Positions 5,327-64,000 of a DNA stretch of 64,000 bases are shown here, piece after piece (positions within the stretch are counted from its first letter, which is position 1; every line of letters starts with the position of its first letter). The notes under the pieces were generated by a model. It saw only the letters and a list, made by a program, of their open reading frames with translations. It had not been told where the DNA came from and did no database searches. The stretch is from a virus. Location: IMG/VR virus record IMGVR_UViG_3300008116_000011, positions 96,001 through 160,000 of that record. One strand, written 5' to 3'. The translations under genes were made by a program, and so were the position numbers.

Positions 5327-6147
5327 ATAAAAAGACTTTTATCAAACCCAATATACTTATTATATTCGGGATTATTAAGTAAATTATTTTCTTTAATAAG
5401 TTGTTTTACAAATGTATCCCCATGAGTTCCTGTTAGAGTTTCATGGCCATTCAAATCCATTAAAAATGCACCATGGCGTATTATTTCTTTATACCCTATA
5501 ATAAAATATTCTGCAGGGTATGCTAAATCATAGATATAGTATTTAGTGCATATTATTTTATAGTGATTCTTATTAGCTATTTCTGAGCAATCTAGTTCAT
5601 GAGGATTTATATCAGGGTTGTCTTGTAATAATTGTGTTAGTGATGATTTTTTCCATATACATGGTTGGATACTAAAAGCATGCCTGTAATTAGGATCCAT
5701 GTGGTGGAATATATTATTTTCAAATCCGTATTTGCTATAATCGATATTAAATAAAGGTCTATTATATTGATTAGCGTATGATGAAGCAAATGAGAATAAA
5801 TCTATGTTTTCATCATTCATTAATTTAACAAGATTATTTAGCCCTGTTATATCTATAGGATCTGTTAGAATATAGTCTTCGCAAAAATAGAATATATAAT
5901 CTTCTTTAATTTGAGGAAGTACATTGTTTAATGTTTTTGAGAAATGACCCCCAATAGAATCAAATTCTACATCCCCTGCTAAGTATTTTACTCTATCTAA
6001 ATATGGTAGATCGAATATTGTAAATTTGTTAGCTACAACATATATTGGTAAATTAAAATTTGGATTATGTTTAAAAAAATAATCTAAAAATAATCGTAGT
6101 ATGGGCAAATTAGTTTCATTAGTATAAACTACTATAGCTAAATTCAT
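5320..6147 (-). CDS. Putative GT-A fold glycosyltransferase
   Basis: YIFYFCEDY (DxD-like), QPCIWKKSSL; translationally coupled to sugar-nucleotide genes. Confidence 0.6.
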   Translation of the reverse strand: MNLAIVVYTNETNLPILRLFLDYFFKHNPNFNLPIYVVANKFTIFDLPYLDRVKYLAGDVEFDSIGGHFSKTLNNVLPQIKEDYIFYFCEDYILTDPIDITGLNNLVKLMNDENIDLFSFASSYANQYNRPLFNIDYSKYGFENNIFHHMDPNYRHAFSIQPCIWKKSSLTQLLQDNPDINPHELDCSEIANKNHYKIICTKYYIYDLAYPAEYFIIGYKEIIRHGAFLMDLNGHETLTGTHGDTFVKQLIKENNLLNNPEYNKYIGFDKSLFIW

Positions 6148-6371
6148 AAAACATCTTTATCAAATATAACTATTATTTCTCCTGGGTTATGTGCAGGGAT
6201 ATTATATTCAAAGTTATATTTAGTCAAAACTTCACTTACTATTTTCTTCATAAATTCAGAATATCCAGTAATTATTCTTAAAGGTAGTTGTTTTGAATTA
6301 AGTAATACAAAATTTTCTACCACACCCCATACTTGATGATGATATAAACCATGTAAATCTAATTCTTTCAT
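6144..6371 (-). CDS. Stand-alone Smr domain protein
   Basis: LDLHG, IITG and NPG motifs in 75 aa. Confidence 0.8.
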   Translation of the reverse strand: MKELDLHGLYHHQVWGVVENFVLLNSKQLPLRIITGYSEFMKKIVSEVLTKYNFEYNIPAHNPGEIIVIFDKDVL

Positions 6372-7261
6372 TATACATTTAATGTTTTATTCCAAGCTGC
6401 AATATGCAAACGAGTCAATCCTCTAAATTTATACTTTTTAGCCATTTCAAGAACAAATTGAGTACGCTCTTCAAAATTAGCTACATCATCTAGTCCTGGC
6501 ATACAAACCACGTTGGAAAGAGGTATATTAAGTGGTACGATAAAGTCGCTAAAAATCTCGTGTACATCTTCTTCATTGGATATAACAAATTTAAATTGAT
6601 AGTTTCTATGTTCCATAATACGTTTAAGAGCAGCTTCGTTAAAGCGTTGACTCTTACTCATTCCTGAGTTTGCTAACTTAGGTGAACAGTTGATTTGGTC
6701 TAAATAATCGAATAATAGTTCATCAATTACTACAGTACCATTTGTTTCAATTTCATTAAAAGCTGTTACTTTTCTAACTTTAGATGATTCACCTGTTTCT
6801 AAGTTATATTTTGTAAAAATATTTTTTACGCTAGGATCCTGGTTAATCCAATATTCAAAGAAGTTACAAATTGCTTGTTGGTGTCCTTTAATTGTAGGTT
6901 CACCACCAGTCCAAATAATATGAATAGTACCGTTTTTAATATCATCATAGATACCTTCTTCTTTCCACCTATCAATTAGATATTGGAATTCTTTATCTTC
7001 ACCTCTCCACAACCATTGGCTTGTAGAATCACAAGTCCAAGTTGCTTTACCTTCTTTAACTAAATCACCTTCGAATATTTCTCCGTCCTCTAAATTTTGA
7101 TCTTTCATTAATTGATTTGCAAATTGACGGCTCATACCGCAAGTCAAGTTACAAATACCTAAACGAACAAAGTAAGAGGGCACACCTGAGGAGATACCCT
7201 CGCCTTGGACAGAGTAGAAGTCGGAACTTATTAATAGCTTATTCGGATCAATTTTACTCAT
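6371..7261 (-). CDS. queE: 7-carboxy-7-deazaguanine synthase (radical SAM)
   Basis: FYSVQGEG, RLGICNLTC...CDS, TGGEP, ETNG, CSPK, RLH. Confidence 0.9.
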   Translation of the reverse strand: MSKIDPNKLLISSDFYSVQGEGISSGVPSYFVRLGICNLTCGMSRQFANQLMKDQNLEDGEIFEGDLVKEGKATWTCDSTSQWLWRGEDKEFQYLIDRWKEEGIYDDIKNGTIHIIWTGGEPTIKGHQQAICNFFEYWINQDPSVKNIFTKYNLETGESSKVRKVTAFNEIETNGTVVIDELLFDYLDQINCSPKLANSGMSKSQRFNEAALKRIMEHRNYQFKFVISNEEDVHEIFSDFIVPLNIPLSNVVCMPGLDDVANFEERTQFVLEMAKKYKFRGLTRLHIAAWNKTLNV

Positions 7262-17635: not shown

Positions 17636-18442
17636 TTATTCGTTAAATAGGTCATTAAATTTGTCTGCTTTAGATTGCTTAGCCTGCAAGTTAAAATTTT
17701 GGTCTTGCTTTTTTTCCCAAGGTAAATCACCCTCTTCCTCTTCGTCCTTAGCAACAATTGGCTCTTCAGTATCTTCTTCAGGATTAGCCCATTTTTGGAA
17801 GATTTCGTTCAAGCTCTCATAAGTGTGATGCTTATTAATTGCTAAAATGTCAGGTTGCTCTTCAAGCCAACCATTAATGGCATCAGCATCATCAGAAAGT
17901 GGAGTTGTTTTTACACGTGGGGTAAGGTTACATTTAATACCTTTACGACCTGCAATGTCTGCTTCAACAGCTTCAATGACAAAATCACGACCATCTTGAA
18001 TATCGGTATAATCACCGTAATCTTCATTCATGGCAATGTTCATAAGTTGTGTGTAAAGTTCTTTACCAAATTCCCACAAACGAACACCCATTTGCTCTTC
18101 ACCACGTACAATAACAGGAGCAAATACTCTCATTTTAGGAGTAATTTTCTTTGCCATCTGCCAATGATCAGGATTGTCTGATTTGCGAAGCTTTTGAGCT
18201 GCTTCTACAATTGGATCAGCTTCACCCCAGTTGGTTAGTGCAAGGATAGGTCCTTTTGTGTAGCCATAGTGAAAATAAATTTCACGGAATGGAGTCGATT
18301 TGTTAAACTTAGAAGGAACAATACGAATCTGGTATTTACCAGCTTTTGGTTTCCAGAAAATCTTTGTGTAGTCGATTTTCTCTCTTTTTTCTCCTTTACT
18401 CTGGAAGGAGTCCAGTTTGTTTTTAATTAATGATAAATCCAT
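17636..18442 (-). CDS. Single-stranded DNA-binding protein (gp32-like)
   Basis: FWKPKAG..IRIVP, DYTD..GRDF; acidic C-tail with DLPW. Confidence 0.85.
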   Translation of the reverse strand: MDLSLIKNKLDSFQSKGEKREKIDYTKIFWKPKAGKYQIRIVPSKFNKSTPFREIYFHYGYTKGPILALTNWGEADPIVEAAQKLRKSDNPDHWQMAKKITPKMRVFAPVIVRGEEQMGVRLWEFGKELYTQLMNIAMNEDYGDYTDIQDGRDFVIEAVEADIAGRKGIKCNLTPRVKTTPLSDDADAINGWLEEQPDILAINKHHTYESLNEIFQKWANPEEDTEEPIVAKDEEEEGDLPWEKKQDQNFNLQAKQSKADKFNDLFNE

Positions 18443-18464
18443 AACATTTTTTATTTTGTGACAA

Positions 18465-18496
18465 TAAATATAAGAAATTAGGATTGGGTATCCAAA
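18465..18496 (-). promoter_or_regulatory. Promoter TTTGG-N19-TATATTTA (ssb-uvsX-exo)
   Basis: Exact motif and spacing. Confidence 0.7.
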
Positions 18497-18520
18497 AACG
18501 GTACTGGTTTTATTTTATTA

Positions 18521-18841
18521 TTACATAAGATCCCTTAACCATTGCAATACTTCCCTTAATTCATCATCTTTTAAATGATATATATCTTCAGAAGTAATAT
18601 AACCTTTTTCATCAAAAGCATCAATAAAACCATATTCTAATCCTATACGCTCTAATTCCTCGCGTAAAACATTATAATACCCCACATATGGATCACCATC
18701 CCACTGATGTTCAGCTTTACGAGCTAAATTATTAAATAAATCAACTATACCTAGGAATTGTGGTTGTACAGGTACAACTTTAGCCTCATTAATTCCTGCT
18801 AGTTTTTGCAGGCGTTGAGCTTCTGTGATGTACTGTTTCAT
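18521..18841 (-). CDS. Hypothetical protein with ITEAQRLQKLAGINE leader (candidate head-internal protein)
   Basis: Leader shared with 55403-55729 and 55735-56184; TATTTATA at 18845-18852. Confidence 0.65.
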   Translation of the reverse strand: MKQYITEAQRLQKLAGINEAKVVPVQPQFLGIVDLFNNLARKAEHQWDGDPYVGYYNVLREELERIGLEYGFIDAFDEKGYITSEDIYHLKDDELREVLQWLRDLM

Positions 18842-18852
18842 GGATATAAATA

Positions 18853-19314
18853 CTAGATCTCTACTATCTTGTAGATCTTAGTGTGTACTTTCCTTAAACC
18901 ACCGTCTTGAGTAAGCAATATAGTATTGCGGTGATCCAACCAATTAACTCTATAATTAGTATCTAATATACCTCCGTTTAATTCACGAATTAATGCATTA
19001 AGAGCATTAATTGTATATAATGTATTACTTTCTTTTTTGCGATGCAGCAATATTGTATTGGAAAGAGCATTTTGTGAATTGTTATTCACAATATCAATGT
19101 TGTAAGTAAGAATTAATTCATCTGTATCTGGTGATTCCAATACAAATATTTTATTATATAAAATAGCATAACGCGTAGTTAAGCTATTTAATGTCTCATC
19201 TAATCTGTTGTGCTCAATAAAGGTGCAAAATAATTTATTTCCCGCCATTTCATCAATAAGAATGTTCTCAAATTCATAACTGGTCATAAATATGGGGTGT
19301 TCTAGTGTAGACAT
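18853..19314 (-). CDS. Conserved-looking hypothetical protein
   Basis: NKLFCTF...LHRKKESNTLYTINALN; start uncertain (a promoter-like motif at ~19285 suggests a later start). Confidence 0.65.
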   Translation of the reverse strand: MSTLEHPIFMTSYEFENILIDEMAGNKLFCTFIEHNRLDETLNSLTTRYAILYNKIFVLESPDTDELILTYNIDIVNNNSQNALSNTILLHRKKESNTLYTINALNALIRELNGGILDTNYRVNWLDHRNTILLTQDGGLRKVHTKIYKIVEI

Positions 19315-51504: not shown

Positions 51505-53178
51505 TTAAGCAATACCAAGGGCGTTTAAGCCATTAACAAACACTTTACCATAGAATTCAGGACGTACCATTTTCTTAGCGTAACGAGTCATGATACCTTT
51601 TCTTGGTACGAAAGTTTCTGGATCGTACACAAGAGGGGTCATCAACAATGGTACATAAGGAGCATAAACAGCACCTGATTCAAGGAACTGAGCACCTTTG
51701 TAACCCATTAAGATCACGTTATTGCTGAAGTAAGGGTTAACATATACTTTGAAACGAGAGTTCAAAGAACCGATCTTTTGGCTACCGAAGTTAAACACTT
51801 TCTCAAGATCAGCACCTGCATCAGAAGCATATCCTGGGATAGACTGCATGATAGTAGCGATCTGAGGAGAGATAACTAAGAAGTTAGCTTGACCACGAAG
51901 AGTCTTTTGTAAGATCTTGTTAGATACAGATTGTAATACAGTACCCAATGTTGCAAACCAACCACCTTGTGTGTTATAGAAACCACCAGTTGTAGTAGAA
52001 GTTTGAACGAAAGTTGAACCATTCCACAATTTGTTGTTTTCAGCTGACCAGTAACCAATAGTAGCTGCTTCTTCAGTTAACATAGAAAGGATTTCTAAGT
52101 CGATTTCCATTGCAATGTACTGAGAAAGAAGACCTGTTAATTCCGCTTCAGCGTCGATGTTCTGATAAGCGTTAAGGTCTTGAGCTAATTCTGGTGTCCA
52201 TTGAGCCTTTAATTTACGAGTCTTAGCAACAATAGCATCAGATTTTAACTGGATATTGATTGTTGGGATGTCGATTTGAGCAGGATCAGCGGCATTCGGA
52301 ATAGCGATGTTAGTATTGTCAGCTTCGAAATCACCACGTAAAGCAGGAGTTGTTTGCTTATTGTAGTACAATTCGATTGAACCAGAAGAGGTTGAACCAG
52401 TTAATGGGAAATTAACTACGAATTGTAATGCAGTAGCACCACTACCACTCTGATAGTTAGTGAACTGTTGTAATACTACAGGAGCAGCAACTACAGAGCT
52501 ACTTGGAATCCAAGCTTGTACTGACAAGAAGTCAGGTAAAGCTAAGTTAGAAGCTAATTGAGCATCAGATACATTGATTACATATAATGAACCAGTAGAA
52601 GACTCATAACGAGAATCCCAATCAACATCAGCTAAAGAATTAACTAAAGATGCAGAATAAGTAACAGATGCAGAGAATTGGTTAATTGAATAACCATATC
52701 TACCTTGACCATAAAGACCACCTGTTGGATCTACGTTAGTGATGTCATAATCAGTTGCCTGAACATCAGCTAATGAACCATAAAGTGATTTACCTTGCTG
52801 GAAAGGAGTTTTGTTATTACCATACTGGAAATCCAAGTAGAATACGAGGCCAGAAGGCATAGACATTGGTTGAACTGAAACGAAGTCTTTAGCTACGATT
52901 TCAGCAAATACACGGCGAACGAGTGGTAATGCGATACCAGCCCAGTTTTCACCAGTTCCACCAAGCATAGAGTTGGTACCAGCAGTAATGTTGGTAGACT
53001 CAACTACTAATTGCTTAGCTTGGTTCTCAAGGATCACAGCCATATTGTTTTTTTCAATTTCGCTGCCAATGCCCTCAAGAAGACCGCTCTTACTCCATTT
53101 GGTAGCAACCTTAGCAGCTTCTGCTTGTTGGCTCTTCCATGGATTAGCGCTTTCTAAAAGCATGTTTAAATTTTCCAT
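51505..53178 (-). CDS. Major capsid protein (gp23-like)
   Basis: KWSKSGLLEG, LENQ, VQPMSMPSGLVFYL, RKLKAQWTPELAQDL, YAPYVPL, TRY. Confidence 0.97.
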   Translation of the reverse strand: MENLNMLLESANPWKSQQAEAAKVATKWSKSGLLEGIGSEIEKNNMAVILENQAKQLVVESTNITAGTNSMLGGTGENWAGIALPLVRRVFAEIVAKDFVSVQPMSMPSGLVFYLDFQYGNNKTPFQQGKSLYGSLADVQATDYDITNVDPTGGLYGQGRYGYSINQFSASVTYSASLVNSLADVDWDSRYESSTGSLYVINVSDAQLASNLALPDFLSVQAWIPSSSVVAAPVVLQQFTNYQSGSGATALQFVVNFPLTGSTSSGSIELYYNKQTTPALRGDFEADNTNIAIPNAADPAQIDIPTINIQLKSDAIVAKTRKLKAQWTPELAQDLNAYQNIDAEAELTGLLSQYIAMEIDLEILSMLTEEAATIGYWSAENNKLWNGSTFVQTSTTTGGFYNTQGGWFATLGTVLQSVSNKILQKTLRGQANFLVISPQIATIMQSIPGYASDAGADLEKVFNFGSQKIGSLNSRFKVYVNPYFSNNVILMGYKGAQFLESGAVYAPYVPLLMTPLVYDPETFVPRKGIMTRYAKKMVRPEFYGKVFVNGLNALGIA

Positions 53179-53200: not shown

Positions 53201-54325
53201 TTATTTAATGTTTGCTAACTTTTTCATCCTAGCAATGAAGTCGTTACTTTCAACAATTGCTTGTTTTTGTGGAGCAACGCCTGCTGCTTTAGATGCAAAT
53301 CCTAAAGATTCTTTGATATGAGCTTTTCCAGATTTAGTAGCAAATGTTTCGTTTAATGATTCATAAACAAGTTTTGCTTCTTTAGCTGATTCAGCTTTAT
53401 CAAATGCTTGTACAACCTTAATTTTTTGTGATTCAGTTAAGTTTTTAGACTTAAAGATTTTGTTAACATAAAGTAACTTAGCGTTTAACAAGTTAACTTC
53501 TTGAAGTTCTTGACGAAGAGTATTTACAGTTTCAAGAGCTAAATTTAGATCTTCCTGCATTTTTTTCTTCTTCTTGTAATCTTCAACTCCTTCTTCTTCA
53601 GCAGTGTCTTTTTTATCACCACGTTTAGAAGCAGGAACGTCACCTTTGTTACCACCGTACTTTTTGTGTTTTTTACCTTCAGTAAGCTCGGTTTCTTCAT
53701 CTAACAATTCAGCTAGAATTTCATCGAGGTTTACTTCTTCAATGTCTACAACTTCATCATCGGCTGTGTCAGGTAACTCATCAGACATTTTCATATCCGC
53801 AGATACGTCTATGTTTGCGTTACCATCACCACCCATTTCTTGAGAAACTATGTCGCGGATCATAGCTTCTAATTCATCTATGGAAAGTTCAGATACTTCT
53901 TTTTCTTCCTCTTCTGATTCTTCTTCGTCGTCTTCTACATCTTCAACGTCTTCTTCGGCTTCGATTTCTTCTTCATCTTCAGCCTTTTTAGCTTCGTTTA
54001 ATTCTGCATCAAGTTCGGCGAGAATTTCATCAAGGTCGATTTCGGCGATTGAATTATCGTCGTCATCATAATTCATACCTGACATTCCTTCCATTTTTTC
54101 TTTAGCCATTTCAGCTTCGATGTCATCAGTCATCTTGTCATCTAATTCATCGATCATGTCATCTTCTGTCAAGTCGTCCATCTTTTCTTGCAATCTTGCA
54201 TTGAACATAGATGTTAAACGTGGCATAAAAGCTTCTTCAAGAGCGAGTTTAGCTTGAGCAAGAGCAGTTTCGCGAACAGCTTTAGCGTCAGCAATGGCCT
54301 CCTTTAAAAGGTCTTTTGTGTTCAT
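53201..54325 (-). CDS. Prohead core / scaffold protein
   Basis: Very acidic, upstream of the capsid gene; NAKLLY, C-terminal RMKKLANIK. Confidence 0.8.
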   Translation of the reverse strand: MNTKDLLKEAIADAKAVRETALAQAKLALEEAFMPRLTSMFNARLQEKMDDLTEDDMIDELDDKMTDDIEAEMAKEKMEGMSGMNYDDDDNSIAEIDLDEILAELDAELNEAKKAEDEEEIEAEEDVEDVEDDEEESEEEEKEVSELSIDELEAMIRDIVSQEMGGDGNANIDVSADMKMSDELPDTADDEVVDIEEVNLDEILAELLDEETELTEGKKHKKYGGNKGDVPASKRGDKKDTAEEEGVEDYKKKKKMQEDLNLALETVNTLRQELQEVNLLNAKLLYVNKIFKSKNLTESQKIKVVQAFDKAESAKEAKLVYESLNETFATKSGKAHIKESLGFASKAAGVAPQKQAIVESNDFIARMKKLANIK

Positions 54326-54480
54326 TTTTCCTTAAATTTAGTTTGCGGAAATAAGCTTAATGTAAAAAGCTTAATAGGTTGTTATTGATATTGACAGAGC
54401 TATAAAGAGTAGAGTAGGATAGCTCATTAGTCGTAAATAAATATATGTGGAAATACAAAAACCGCGTTTCGATGCGATTT

Positions 54481-54891
54481 TTATTCAAAAGCTCTTTGGT
54501 AAGATTTAGCTGCTTCTTTTAAAGAGCTAGCGGCCCATTTAAGTTGATATGCTGTTTCACTTAGATTATCTAATTTATTACTAATTTTTTCTAATTCACG
54601 TACATTATCAGGAATATCAAATATATCATATGGTTCATATATATCAAAATATTCTTCAAATAATTTTTTTAAAACGTTTTCTGTATTTTCTAGATTTTGT
54701 TTAAGAGTTTCTAGTTGAGATGGATTGTTGATAACATCACTTATACTTAAACTAGATAATTGATCCGCATAAGATTGAACTTTATCTGAAAAGAAATTTT
54801 CTTCTTTTTGAGCTTTAGCTACTAAATCATCTATGCTTTTTCTAGGAGGTGTTACTCTAGCTTCTTTTAGTATGTCATGAAGTTTAATCAT
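54481..54891 (-). CDS. Helical protein with MIKLHDILKEA leader
   Basis: Head cluster; shared leader. Confidence 0.65.
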   Translation of the reverse strand: MIKLHDILKEARVTPPRKSIDDLVAKAQKEENFFSDKVQSYADQLSSLSISDVINNPSQLETLKQNLENTENVLKKLFEEYFDIYEPYDIFDIPDNVRELEKISNKLDNLSETAYQLKWAASSLKEAAKSYQRAFE

Positions 54892-55016
54892 CTTCCTTGT
54901 CCTCTATAGTTTTTTTCTGAACGATCGTGTTTATTAAATGACTTTTGTGATTTGCCTTTTTTGCGTTTGCCAAAAGTAATTTTAGTTGAACCGCTTGAAC
55001 CTTTTGCTTTTGCCAT
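54888..55016 (-). CDS. Small basic protein (42 aa, not in ORF track)
   Basis: MAKAKGSSGSTKITFGKRKKGKSQKSFNKHDRSEKNYRGQGR; ATGA overlap with the next gene. Confidence 0.7.
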   Translation of the reverse strand: MAKAKGSSGSTKITFGKRKKGKSQKSFNKHDRSEKNYRGQGR

Positions 55017-55024
55017 GACTTTTA

Positions 55025-55396
55025 TTATTGTAAGTTAACTAATTTATATTTGGTTGAATATAATAAATTTACTACGTTATCTATTTCGTTTTGAATAAAA
55101 CTATCTGCTAAATTTGGTGCTTGTCTTAAAGCACATACAATTTGAATTAACTTATCAAAATAAGCTACAATATTTGCACCGTCACAATTATTATCTAAGT
55201 TAACTACCGGTTTAAATTTAATTAAACCATATTTTCCTTGATATGATTCTACTAAACCATCAATTAAATCAACTATATCTTCATAATATTTTTGAAGTGC
55301 TTTGTGAGCAGCATAAGCACCAGGACCACTTACACCTAAATGAAATACGTGTGCTTGAGTTCTAGAGTGCATTAATATCGATGCTAATTCTTCCAT
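55025..55396 (-). CDS. Ferritin/Dps-like four-helix protein (DUF5856-like)
   Basis: HVFHL..AAHKAL..YY....D.LVESYQG..IQNEID. Confidence 0.65.
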   Translation of the reverse strand: MEELASILMHSRTQAHVFHLGVSGPGAYAAHKALQKYYEDIVDLIDGLVESYQGKYGLIKFKPVVNLDNNCDGANIVAYFDKLIQIVCALRQAPNLADSFIQNEIDNVVNLLYSTKYKLVNLQ

Positions 55397-55402
55397 GTTG
55401 TT

Positions 55403-55729
55403 TTATTTTGTCTCTTTTAATCCATAAGGTATACCTAATACTCCATGAACTGCTCTTCTAAATGCTTTTTGAGTTTCCATTTGAATTGCTTTCATTACAA
55501 GTTCTTGTAAAGCAGGATTATTAATTAATAAAGGTATTTTTCCATTTGAAGGATCATGATAAAATGCACTTAGTTTTATTCTCATCATTCCATGATCATT
55601 AATGTAAAGTTTAACAGATGGAACATCGTCCATTAATTCTCGATCTGGAAGGTAATTGTGTTCTTCTTCATCAACAATTCCTGCTAATTCTTGCATTCTT
55701 TTAGATTCTGTAATGAATTGTTTTGACAT
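55403..55729 (-). CDS. Hypothetical protein with MSKQFITESKRMQELAGI leader
   Basis: Shared leader; head cluster. Confidence 0.65.
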   Translation of the reverse strand: MSKQFITESKRMQELAGIVDEEEHNYLPDRELMDDVPSVKLYINDHGMMRIKLSAFYHDPSNGKIPLLINNPALQELVMKAIQMETQKAFRRAVHGVLGIPYGLKETK

Positions 55730-55734
55730 TTTAA

Positions 55735-56184
55735 TTATTTGTATGGGTTTTCCTTTGCTTTATTCCAATAAATTAAACTATCTTCACCAATAGAAAATTC
55801 ATTAGAATGATTTTTTATATAATCTTCAGCATATCTCTTTAAAACATCAGCAGCTTCTGCTCCTGTCATGTCGCTAGAACCGAATGCAAATTTTTTAGTT
55901 CTATCATTTATTGAACTTCCTAAATCTAATTTTTTTTCATCACTCATTTTATTAAGAACGGGTCTGATGTTTTTTTCATAGAATGCTATTTGAGCTTTTC
56001 TATCAGCTTGTTGTTTTTGATCTAGTTGATGCACTTTAACTCCACCTAATATAGTAGCAGCTGTTAGTCCTAATCCAATAAGCCAATCTTTAAAACCTTC
56101 GTCTATTGTTTCTTCTTGATTTTCAGCAATAATGCCTGCTAGTTTTTGCATTCTTTTTGCTTCGGTAATAAATTGCTTTGACAT
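55735..56184 (-). CDS. Hypothetical protein with MSKQFITEAKRMQKLAGI leader and a hydrophobic helix
   Basis: Shared leader, then EGFKDWLIGLGLTAATILGG. Confidence 0.65.
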   Translation of the reverse strand: MSKQFITEAKRMQKLAGIIAENQEETIDEGFKDWLIGLGLTAATILGGVKVHQLDQKQQADRKAQIAFYEKNIRPVLNKMSDEKKLDLGSSINDRTKKFAFGSSDMTGAEAADVLKRYAEDYIKNHSNEFSIGEDSLIYWNKAKENPYK

Positions 56185-56196
56185 TCTAGTTTAATT

Positions 56197-56838
56197 TTAA
56201 TATCCAGGTAATTCACAAGTACAGAAACCAGCGCGATTGCAAAGGATTTCTGTTACTAGTTCGTTAATTTTATCTAATTTCTTTTGTTCTTGTTTATTAT
56301 ATTGATTATATTGTTTAGATTCACTAACAATTTCCATAAACGCACCTTGTGTTGATGGAGTTGATACGAAATCCCAACATAATAATTCAAAATCGGGTTG
56401 TACTTCAACAGTCTCACCGATTTGTTTTACAGAACCCATACCACGAGATGAAATACCAATAGTAATACCTGCAATTAACAATGCTTTTAAAATATTACCT
56501 GATGGTGTTGGTAGTACTTCAATTTTTCCCATTACATCATCTTTATCCCACCATAAATCTTTAATGTTATGACATACATTTTTTAAGTTGATGATTGGAG
56601 ATTCTGGGTGGTCTAATTCACCTAGTGCTCTATTTTCTTTAATGTATGTGTCTTTATATTTTTGTACTTCTCTTTCAAGAGTATCTTTAGGATATACACG
56701 ACCATTACCATTTTTTGCTTCAGCACGTTGTACCAAACCTTGAACAATAAGACGTCCACCGTTGTTTTTAATAGATTCCTCCAACATTGATGGAGTAATA
56801 TTAAAAGTAGTAATACGCTCTATTAATAGTTCTTTCAT
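56197..56838 (-). CDS. Prohead core protease (gp21-like)
   Basis: NGNGRVYP, GELDHP, GISSRGMGS, DFVSTPS. Confidence 0.95.
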   Translation of the reverse strand: MKELLIERITTFNITPSMLEESIKNNGGRLIVQGLVQRAEAKNGNGRVYPKDTLEREVQKYKDTYIKENRALGELDHPESPIINLKNVCHNIKDLWWDKDDVMGKIEVLPTPSGNILKALLIAGITIGISSRGMGSVKQIGETVEVQPDFELLCWDFVSTPSTQGAFMEIVSESKQYNQYNKQEQKKLDKINELVTEILCNRAGFCTCELPGY

Positions 56839-63913: not shown

Positions 63914-64000
63914 TATAATTAAAAAAAAAGCTCAACCTTTGTTGATTGAGCCTATCGTATGGGCATGCAAGAGATGTTAATTTTAATCTTCATAATAAGG

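Follow-up and report, generated by a model that had tools for sequence, protein, structure and literature searches.

A portable N-terminal leader that copies the scaffold C-terminus: a candidate capsid-targeting propeptide in an uncultured T4-like phage

Introduction

Why do otherwise unrelated proteins of one phage begin with nearly the same short peptide? This question is raised by a stretch of 64,000 nucleotides, positions 96001-160000 of the 174,437-bp virus record IMGVR_UViG_3300008116_000011 from IMG/VR. The record has 32% G+C and comes from an uncultured T4-like phage; the stretch is referred to here as the window. Two neighboring genes between those for the prohead protease and the scaffolding protein, together with a third gene far away, encode proteins with this leader peptide. 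An original prediction, made from the letters of the window, had proposed that the leader mimics the C-terminus of the scaffold, so that any payload would be packaged into the head, trimmed by a gp21-like protease and possibly injected. Comparative analyses of the genome and its relatives are reported here. As far as can be read from these sequences, the leader is a copy of the scaffold tail that serves as a portable, protease-flanked N-terminal module.

A common leader on five unrelated proteins

Five open reading frames (ORFs) of the whole genome start with the leader, and three of them lie wholly inside the window. The first encodes a protein of 149 amino acids (aa) and is located directly downstream of the protease gene (55735..56184, minus strand); its leader comprises residues 1-21 (56122-56184), and the core RMQKLAGI is encoded at 56131-56154. 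The second encodes a 108-aa protein (55403..55729, minus strand), which has a homologue in a relative (contig L024). Here, the leader also comprises residues 1-21 (55667-55729), and the core reads RMQELAGI (55676-55699). The third encodes a 106-aa protein (18521..18841, minus strand; leader residues 1-19, 18785-18841) and occupies a variable slot flanked by a conserved 153-aa ORF and the gene for a gp32-like SSB. These are the three ORFs of the original prediction, whose coordinates, minus-strand orientation and starting peptides were all confirmed.

The scan of the genome and its relatives with a leader profile, which had been suggested as a check, revealed two further genomic copies and a cargo that varies under a constant leader. 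One additional copy is found on a 332-aa protein composed of two modules, which is encoded on the minus strand just upstream of the terminase gene (window 63983-64981; L001:983-1981); only the 3' end of this ORF (63983..64000) lies inside the window, whereas the start is located past its end. The second additional copy heads a 126-aa ORF (genome positions 167821-168201). Three of the five leader genes are sited in the head module. When a profile of the first 26 residues was compared with the 964 ORFs of the genome, the five ORFs were retrieved with E values from 4e-20 to 9e-18, and the next best match had an E value of 0.57. The leader begins at residue 1 in all five cases and follows the consensus M-K-K-Q-F-I-T-E-A-x-R-[LM]-Q-K-L-A-G-I-x-E of about 20 residues. 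The I/L-x-E motif that had been noticed in each leader was found again, with [ILV]-x-E at residues 6-8 and a second such site just after LAGI.

Once the leaders are removed, comparison of the five bodies with one another revealed no significant similarity (best E 0.009 over 47 aa in a five-sequence database), and neither did comparison with the remaining ORFs of the genome. The same result answers the question of plain paralogy that the original prediction had posed for its leader proteins. Synonymous codons vary between the leader copies at Ile, Thr, Ala, Arg, Leu and Gly positions and the DNA upstream is not conserved, which indicates that selection acts on the peptide rather than on an element of the DNA or RNA. 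For the leader of the 149-aa protein, a helix (residues 3-15) followed by a coil is predicted. A hydrophobic segment of this protein (about residues 34-50; helix at about 29-50), which had been pointed out before as a possible membrane-acting part, is indeed present, predicted to be helical and conserved in homologues; it is followed by a helical body.

The scaffold C-terminus and the leader core

The scaffold of this phage is an acidic gp22-like protein (53201..54325, minus strand). Its C-terminus was found as described earlier, with the order I-V-E, S-N-D-F-I-A, R-M-K-K-L-A-N-I-K. On the minus strand, the I-V-E site (53249-53257) precedes a putative docking tail, which consists of the last 15 residues (53204-53248) and includes the core RMKKLANI (53207-53230). 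In relatives, the scaffold ends with A-R-M-Q-K-L-A-G-I-K (contig L021), S-R-W-Q-K-L-A-G-I-I-K (Flavobacterium phage vB_FspM_immuto, immuto in the following) and E-R-M-K-K-L-A-G-I-V-K (Microcystis phage Mel-JY01). The C-terminal 120 residues of the scaffold have 5,266 homologues in a clustered collection and 3,133 in a 50%-identity library. Among the best 150 representatives at 50% identity, the motif R-[MWF]-[QK]-x-L-A-[GN]-I plus zero to few residues forms the C-terminus in 149, and an [ILVM]-x-E site is located 11-22 residues before the end in 133. At the level of sequence, the consensus scaffold tail is the leader core, letter for letter.

As an independent test, a 13-position profile was built from scaffold tails only and searched against all ORFs of the genome. 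The scaffold itself was retrieved first (E 4e-7), the next five matches were the leader ORFs (E 1e-4, 2e-3, 1e-2, 3e-2 and 0.8), and noise began at an E value of 2. Together with the conservation of the tail among the scaffold representatives, this strongly supports the original claim that the leader copies the scaffold C-terminus. In Mel-JY01, the motif is present at the scaffold end only and there is no leader ORF, which marks the tail as the older, more widespread element and the leader as its copy. In an AlphaFold2 model of the scaffold (49 sequences), a helical domain predicted with confidence is connected by a 33-residue linker of low confidence to a short helix at the end, D-F-I-A-R-M-K-K-L. 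No tight co-variation between the local scaffold tail and the local leaders was seen in the few complete genomes, so that co-evolution lends no support in either direction.

Two observations concern the tail in other contexts. In one IMG/VR contig (L044; G003:C1:27803-31144, minus strand), scaffold and capsid protein are encoded in one open frame. The join is located directly after R-W-Q-V-L-A-G, and about a dozen N-terminal residues of the capsid protein are absent. This single frame is either a natural fusion, which would hint at a tail near the capsid N-terminus, or an assembly artefact. Furthermore, an acidic 375-aa protein (L001:2658-3785, minus strand; genome 161658-162785) ends with the scaffold-tail variant E-R-M-I-K-L-V-N-Y-K-G, and its gene has an upstream TATTTATA octamer (see below). 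Of 24 homologues, 14 retain the tail; in most of the others, short tails of unrelated sequence take its place immediately behind a conserved V-Y-E, which gives the tail the look of an exchangeable module.

Cleavage sites and module shuffling

The prohead protease is a gp21-like enzyme of the Peptidase_S77 family (56197..56838, minus strand; Pfam E 1.9e-30). It is 35% identical to T4 gp21, and the segments containing the catalytic His and Ser residues (HP and SSRG motifs) align. Sites fitting such a protease flank the leader core: in an alignment of 143 distinct leaders anchored on L-A-G, [ILVM]-x-E occurs before the core in 141 and directly after LAGI also in 141. In the same alignment, E at position -7, R at -4, Q at -2 and L-A are invariant, and G and I are found in 141 and 140 leaders, respectively. 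For the proposed trimming by a gp21-like protease, the S77 enzyme with its catalytic motifs and the flanking sites thus fit at the sequence level, whereas the cleavage itself is what we infer from them.

Three leaders of this genome are followed by a junction of the type E/A-[KR]-[VI]-V-P, in which the slash marks the predicted cut. This junction also opens modules inside a 539-aa polyprotein (genome 165828-167447), forms the internal joint of the 332-aa protein and follows the short leader of a 136-aa ORF (see below). In the two-module 332-aa protein, residues 195-314 are 48% identical (E 9e-37) to a stand-alone 138-aa leader protein, and the alignment extends into a decayed leader at the internal junction. 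A related arrangement was observed in a 446-codon frame of a relative (L019:9230-10570, plus strand), in which a short leader precedes a body of some 230 residues, followed by two long leaders in tandem and a second body related to the 332-aa protein. Judging from its layout, this frame may encode a polyprotein with internal docking modules.

Distribution, cassette turnover and cargo

A profile search of a large protein collection, aimed at longer proteins, yielded 229 matches at E values up to 10, a lower bound for the N-terminal leaders present in metagenomes. In all of the 120 proteins listed from these matches, the leader is N-terminal; the core is located at residues 10-12 in 118, and the other two have an LANI variant at the same position. 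The bodies of the 120 proteins fall into 42 single-linkage clusters, in none of which a Pfam domain was detected. Along with the unrelated bodies in this genome, these clusters strongly support the earlier idea of a portable module on unrelated cargo, with the restriction that some bodies share shuffled modules. Diverged leaders with an unchanged core are present in IMG/VR contigs and also in the immuto genome, where two leader ORFs are located (NC_055915, near 111675 and 25061). No copy turned up when 185,579 prokaryote genomes were screened with a single narrow leader pattern. A tblastn search of 50,697 phage records with the 149-aa protein and a 25-residue consensus leader found no match, and the consensus leader is evidently too short for this kind of search because immuto does carry a leader.

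No body could be assigned a function from known families and folds. Neither Pfam nor PHROGs offered a family for a single leader protein or for ten of the longer cargo proteins encoded by relatives, and Foldseek found no match for the model of the 149-aa protein in the PDB at an E value of 0.001 or better. Likewise, no look-alike of the 108-aa body was found in the ESM Atlas, and a PDB sequence search with a 313-aa cargo bearing a DGHHR-like motif had no match. Regarding charge, the cargo has a mean of -0.12 net charges per residue, and 67% of the cargo proteins are below -0.10 vs 5% of the proteins of this phage; the 149-aa and 108-aa proteins are near neutral.

Turnover of leader genes was followed at the locus of the 106-aa gene. 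From 80 loci around SSB-gene homologues, the gene just upstream was read, and 77 loci were usable. The slot is empty in 50 of these, including relatives with 92-96% identical SSB. It holds a long-leader gene in 13 loci, with six body clusters that are all different from the one in this window, a short-leader gene in one locus and an unrelated gene in ten. This hyperplastic slot spans window positions 17636-19314 (minus strand), and an unrelated occupant seen in relatives is a 112-aa gene. The 149-aa and 108-aa genes, for their part, do not change position in relatives, where they lie between the genes for protease and scaffold.

Head module and a late-promoter-like octamer

Nearly all genes in the window are encoded on the minus strand. 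In the order of transcription, the head module comprises the genes for terminase and portal, four unnamed ORFs, the Peptidase_S77 protease and the 149-aa and 108-aa leader ORFs, followed by genes for a DUF5856 protein, a 42-aa basic protein, the 136-aa ORF, the scaffold and the gp23-type capsid protein. The gp23-like major capsid protein (51505..53178, minus strand; Pfam Gp23 E 1e-78) is 53% identical to that of immuto, the nearest cultured relative, 47% to that of Mel-JY01 and 37% to that of Rhodothermus phage RM378. According to an alignment with T4, its propeptide probably ends with V-V-E (residue 60), and relatives have an [VI]-x-E equivalent.

Between protease and scaffold, the module thus also harbors the DUF5856 protein (55025-55396, minus strand), which matches a PHROG annotated as starvation-inducible regulator, and the conserved, very basic 42-aa protein (54888-55016, minus strand). 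At about the equivalent place, Mel-JY01 has a gene for ribosomal protein S21. The scaffold gene of immuto (L027:7725-8966, corresponding to NC_055915 125626-126867) is annotated as 'DNA polymerase phi-like protein', which is probably a low-complexity artefact of the acidic region. By its position, N-terminus and tail, the encoded protein is a gp22-like scaffold.

A late-promoter-like octamer, TATTTATA, is located at 18845..18852 (minus strand) and begins 11 nt ahead of the start codon of the 106-aa leader gene. Both isolated leader genes have the octamer at this distance from the ATG, a spacing that is found in several genes. Genome-wide, there are 55 copies on the gene strand vs 14 on the other, and 28 copies within 60 nt upstream of starts vs 4 expected, corresponding to a sevenfold enrichment. 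The octamer also precedes the genes for terminase (window 63892), sheath and tube. It recalls T4 TATAAATA and is a candidate for a late promoter; its presence upstream of the isolated leader genes suggests their late expression.

A second, short leader

The 136-aa protein of the head module (54481..54891, minus strand) carries a different, short leader, MIKLxDILKE followed by ARV. Short leaders of the form M-[IK]-K-L-x-[DEN]-I-L-x-E are also found on unrelated proteins encoded at genome positions 5763-6140, 6169-6690, 107759-108184 and 165828-167447. In the 136-aa ORF and in the 539-aa protein, the short leader is followed by A-R-[VI]. Over a stretch too short for statistics, it resembles the conserved scaffold N-terminus (K-D-L-L-K-E-A), as the targeting peptide of T4 internal proteins resembles the N-terminus of T4 gp22.

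Comparison with known systems

The long leader invites comparison with the capsid targeting sequence (CTS) of T4 internal proteins, on which Mullaney and Black reportedly published in 1996. To our knowledge, the binding partner of the T-even CTS tag has never been defined in 30 years. In T4, internal proteins are directed to the core by CTS propeptides of 10-19 residues, and gp21 cuts after [LI]-x-E; an Asp at the cut site prevents processing but leaves targeting intact (PMC9026906). The CTS is present on IPI, IPII and IPIII, which are internal proteins, as well as on Alt and is removed by gp21 (PMC3012670, PMC9026906). A shared propeptide on diverse cargo is thus already known from T-even phages (PMC3012670, PMC9026906), and the leader described here is a variant of this theme that probably uses scaffold-tail mimicry. 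In the searchable literature, the motif strings of the leader occurred in no paper.

Like the CTS, the leader is a short N-terminal sequence, probably a propeptide, common to otherwise unrelated proteins, and it ends with [IL]-x-E. The predicted cut is followed by Ala and then Arg-Val as in IPII; T4 IPII and IPIII start with the CTS and continue with A-R-V and A-S-V, respectively, so that the E/A-R-V junction matches IPII. Further likenesses are the gp23, gp22-like and gp21-like head genes of this phage and a diverse set of cargo that changes fast between relatives. In contrast to the CTS, the leader is twice as long and bipartite with two flanking cut sites, as predicted from its sequence, and its core copies the scaffold C-terminal tail, whereas T4 gp22 has no such tail. 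The cargo differs as well, being mostly acidic here and basic in T4 (+0.055 net charges per residue for IPII and IPIII).

In phage P22, the scaffold gp8 binds the coat with C-terminal helices (PMC9965877), and engineered cargo has been loaded by fusion to the scaffold (PMC9962691). Similar to gp8, the scaffold described here has a terminal helical element on a flexible linker, which is presumed to be the shell-docking part. By analogy with the engineered P22 system, in which a docking element fused to a foreign protein loads it, nature has apparently done likewise in this phage. There is no sequence relation between the two, and the P22 element is a helix-turn-helix that is not removed by a protease, whereas the element of this phage has been moved to the N-terminus of the cargo and appears excisable.

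The giant phages phiKZ, 201phi2-1 and SPN3US have long propeptides on ejection or inner-body proteins, which are cut after x-x-E by a gp21-related protease (PMC5694885). These propeptides are thought to target proteins into the prohead, and the paralogues gp53 and gp54 have an identical N-terminus (PMC5694885). The hydrophobic helix behind the leader of the 149-aa protein is reminiscent of the SPN3US ejection protein gp47, which has a transmembrane segment at its mature N-terminus (PMC5694885). Most giant-phage propeptides are, in contrast to the leader, longer than 100 residues and have the cut motif A/S/G-x-E (PMC5694885), and no link to a scaffold tail has been reported for them. Apart from these propeptides, the leader differs from the C-terminal tags of the encapsulin and HK97 systems, which are unrelated in sequence and not excised and can serve as an analogy only. 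In these two systems, cargo is docked to the inner side of an HK97-fold shell by short terminal peptides, namely the cargo-loading peptides of encapsulins and the targeting tail at the C-terminus of the HK97 protease.

Proposed function and alternative explanations

On the basis of these comparisons, we consider it probable that the leader is a T4-CTS-like capsid-targeting propeptide that works by mimicry of the scaffold docking helix. Leader proteins, made late, would dock via the helical core R-[ML]-Q-K-L-A-G-I to the receiver of the scaffold tail, which would most likely be the gp23-like capsid protein, at its inner face or its N-terminal propeptide, or otherwise the scaffold core. Once docked, the proteins would become enclosed in the prohead. 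Subsequently, the gp21-like S77 protease would cut after [ILV]-x-E on both sides of the core and free the body from the docking peptide, and it would also process the scaffold at the I-V-E that lies 15 residues before the C-terminus. The freed bodies might stay in the head and exit with the DNA, or they might be expelled like scaffold fragments. Binding of the scaffold tail to the capsid and the packaging, cleavage and injection of leader proteins are, accordingly, steps that we infer.

Several points weigh against this interpretation. The cargo is mostly strongly acidic and, in this respect, does not resemble the basic, DNA-associated internal proteins IPI-III of T4. This weakens a simple internal-protein analogy and leaves room for expelled core components, as a long-term residence by the DNA is not obvious for such proteins. 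The leader and the T4 CTS (MKTYQEFIAE) share only F-I-x-E/A and E/A-R-V, stretches too short to be assessed statistically. Part of the core's invariance among database matches is a matter of ascertainment since the matches were selected with the leader profile. In addition, a literature search found no virion proteome of immuto or Mel-JY01.

Alternatively, the leader proteins could be accessory scaffold or core components that dock like the scaffold, contribute to filling or tuning the assembly core, are cut and are expelled before or during packaging without any delivery to the host. Most bodies are as acidic as the scaffold, a second acidic protein, the 375-aa one, has a similar C-terminal tail, and the 149-aa and 108-aa genes keep their position between protease and scaffold in relatives. 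We nevertheless regard this explanation as rather unlikely, as the extreme diversity of the bodies and the gain and loss of cassettes at a non-structural locus, empty in most relatives, fit better with dispensable accessory genes, and the T-even precedent consists of diverse defence-related internal proteins (PMC3012670). The shared helix might also bind a partner other than capsid or core, for instance a chaperone, a host factor or an exosite of the prohead protease, in which last case it would act as a degron that recruits substrates; such a partner would then be all that scaffold and leader proteins have in common. The constant presence of protease-type sites on both sides of the core would agree with this, but the motif is missing from the capsid protein, which is presumed to be a substrate as well, and a C-terminal helix on a disordered linker matches coat-binding scaffold ends such as that of P22 gp8 (PMC9965877). 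With the in-frame scaffold-capsid fusion of one relative, which is joined right after the motif and suggests that both ends are close together, a partner of this kind appears distinctly improbable.

There is hardly any room left for a trivial similarity, in which the leader ORFs would be plain paralogues, chance matches or carriers of a nucleotide-level element such as a promoter or recombination site. Some bodies do share modules by single linkage, but those in this genome are unrelated, and plain paralogy was rejected for this reason. A DNA-level element was rejected because codons differ synonymously and the upstream DNA differs too, and a chance match because of leader-profile E values below 1e-17 and the independent tail-only profile, which picks the identical five ORFs.

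Beyond the capsid-targeting propeptide proposed above, a wider and clearly tentative idea, which we put forward as a possibility on which we would not rely, is that T4-like head-cargo tags arise by copying scaffold ends. The long leader would then correspond to the C-terminal docking helix, the short MIKLxDILKE leader and also the T4 CTS would correspond to the N-terminus, and the CTS receptor would be the binding site of the scaffold itself. The mostly acidic cassette cargo could be pre-made anti-defence proteins, possibly DNA mimics, that are delivered with the genome.

Implications

A leader carrying the terminal helix of the scaffold offers a concrete, testable mechanism, namely competition for the scaffold docking site followed by excision. 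The family is large, with thousands of scaffold homologues and hundreds of leader proteins that have uncharacterized bodies. Aquatic metagenomes contain it in abundance, and a cultured Flavobacterium phage is among its members. If capsid targeting by the leader holds true, it would provide a rule by which packaged proteins of uncultured phages can be recognized from sequence, a set of candidate proteins that act early in host takeover or against defence and, for capsid engineering, a natural tag that loads cargo and can be excised. If, moreover, head-cargo tags do arise as copies of scaffold ends, the packaged proteome of uncultured phages would be readable from sequence alone.

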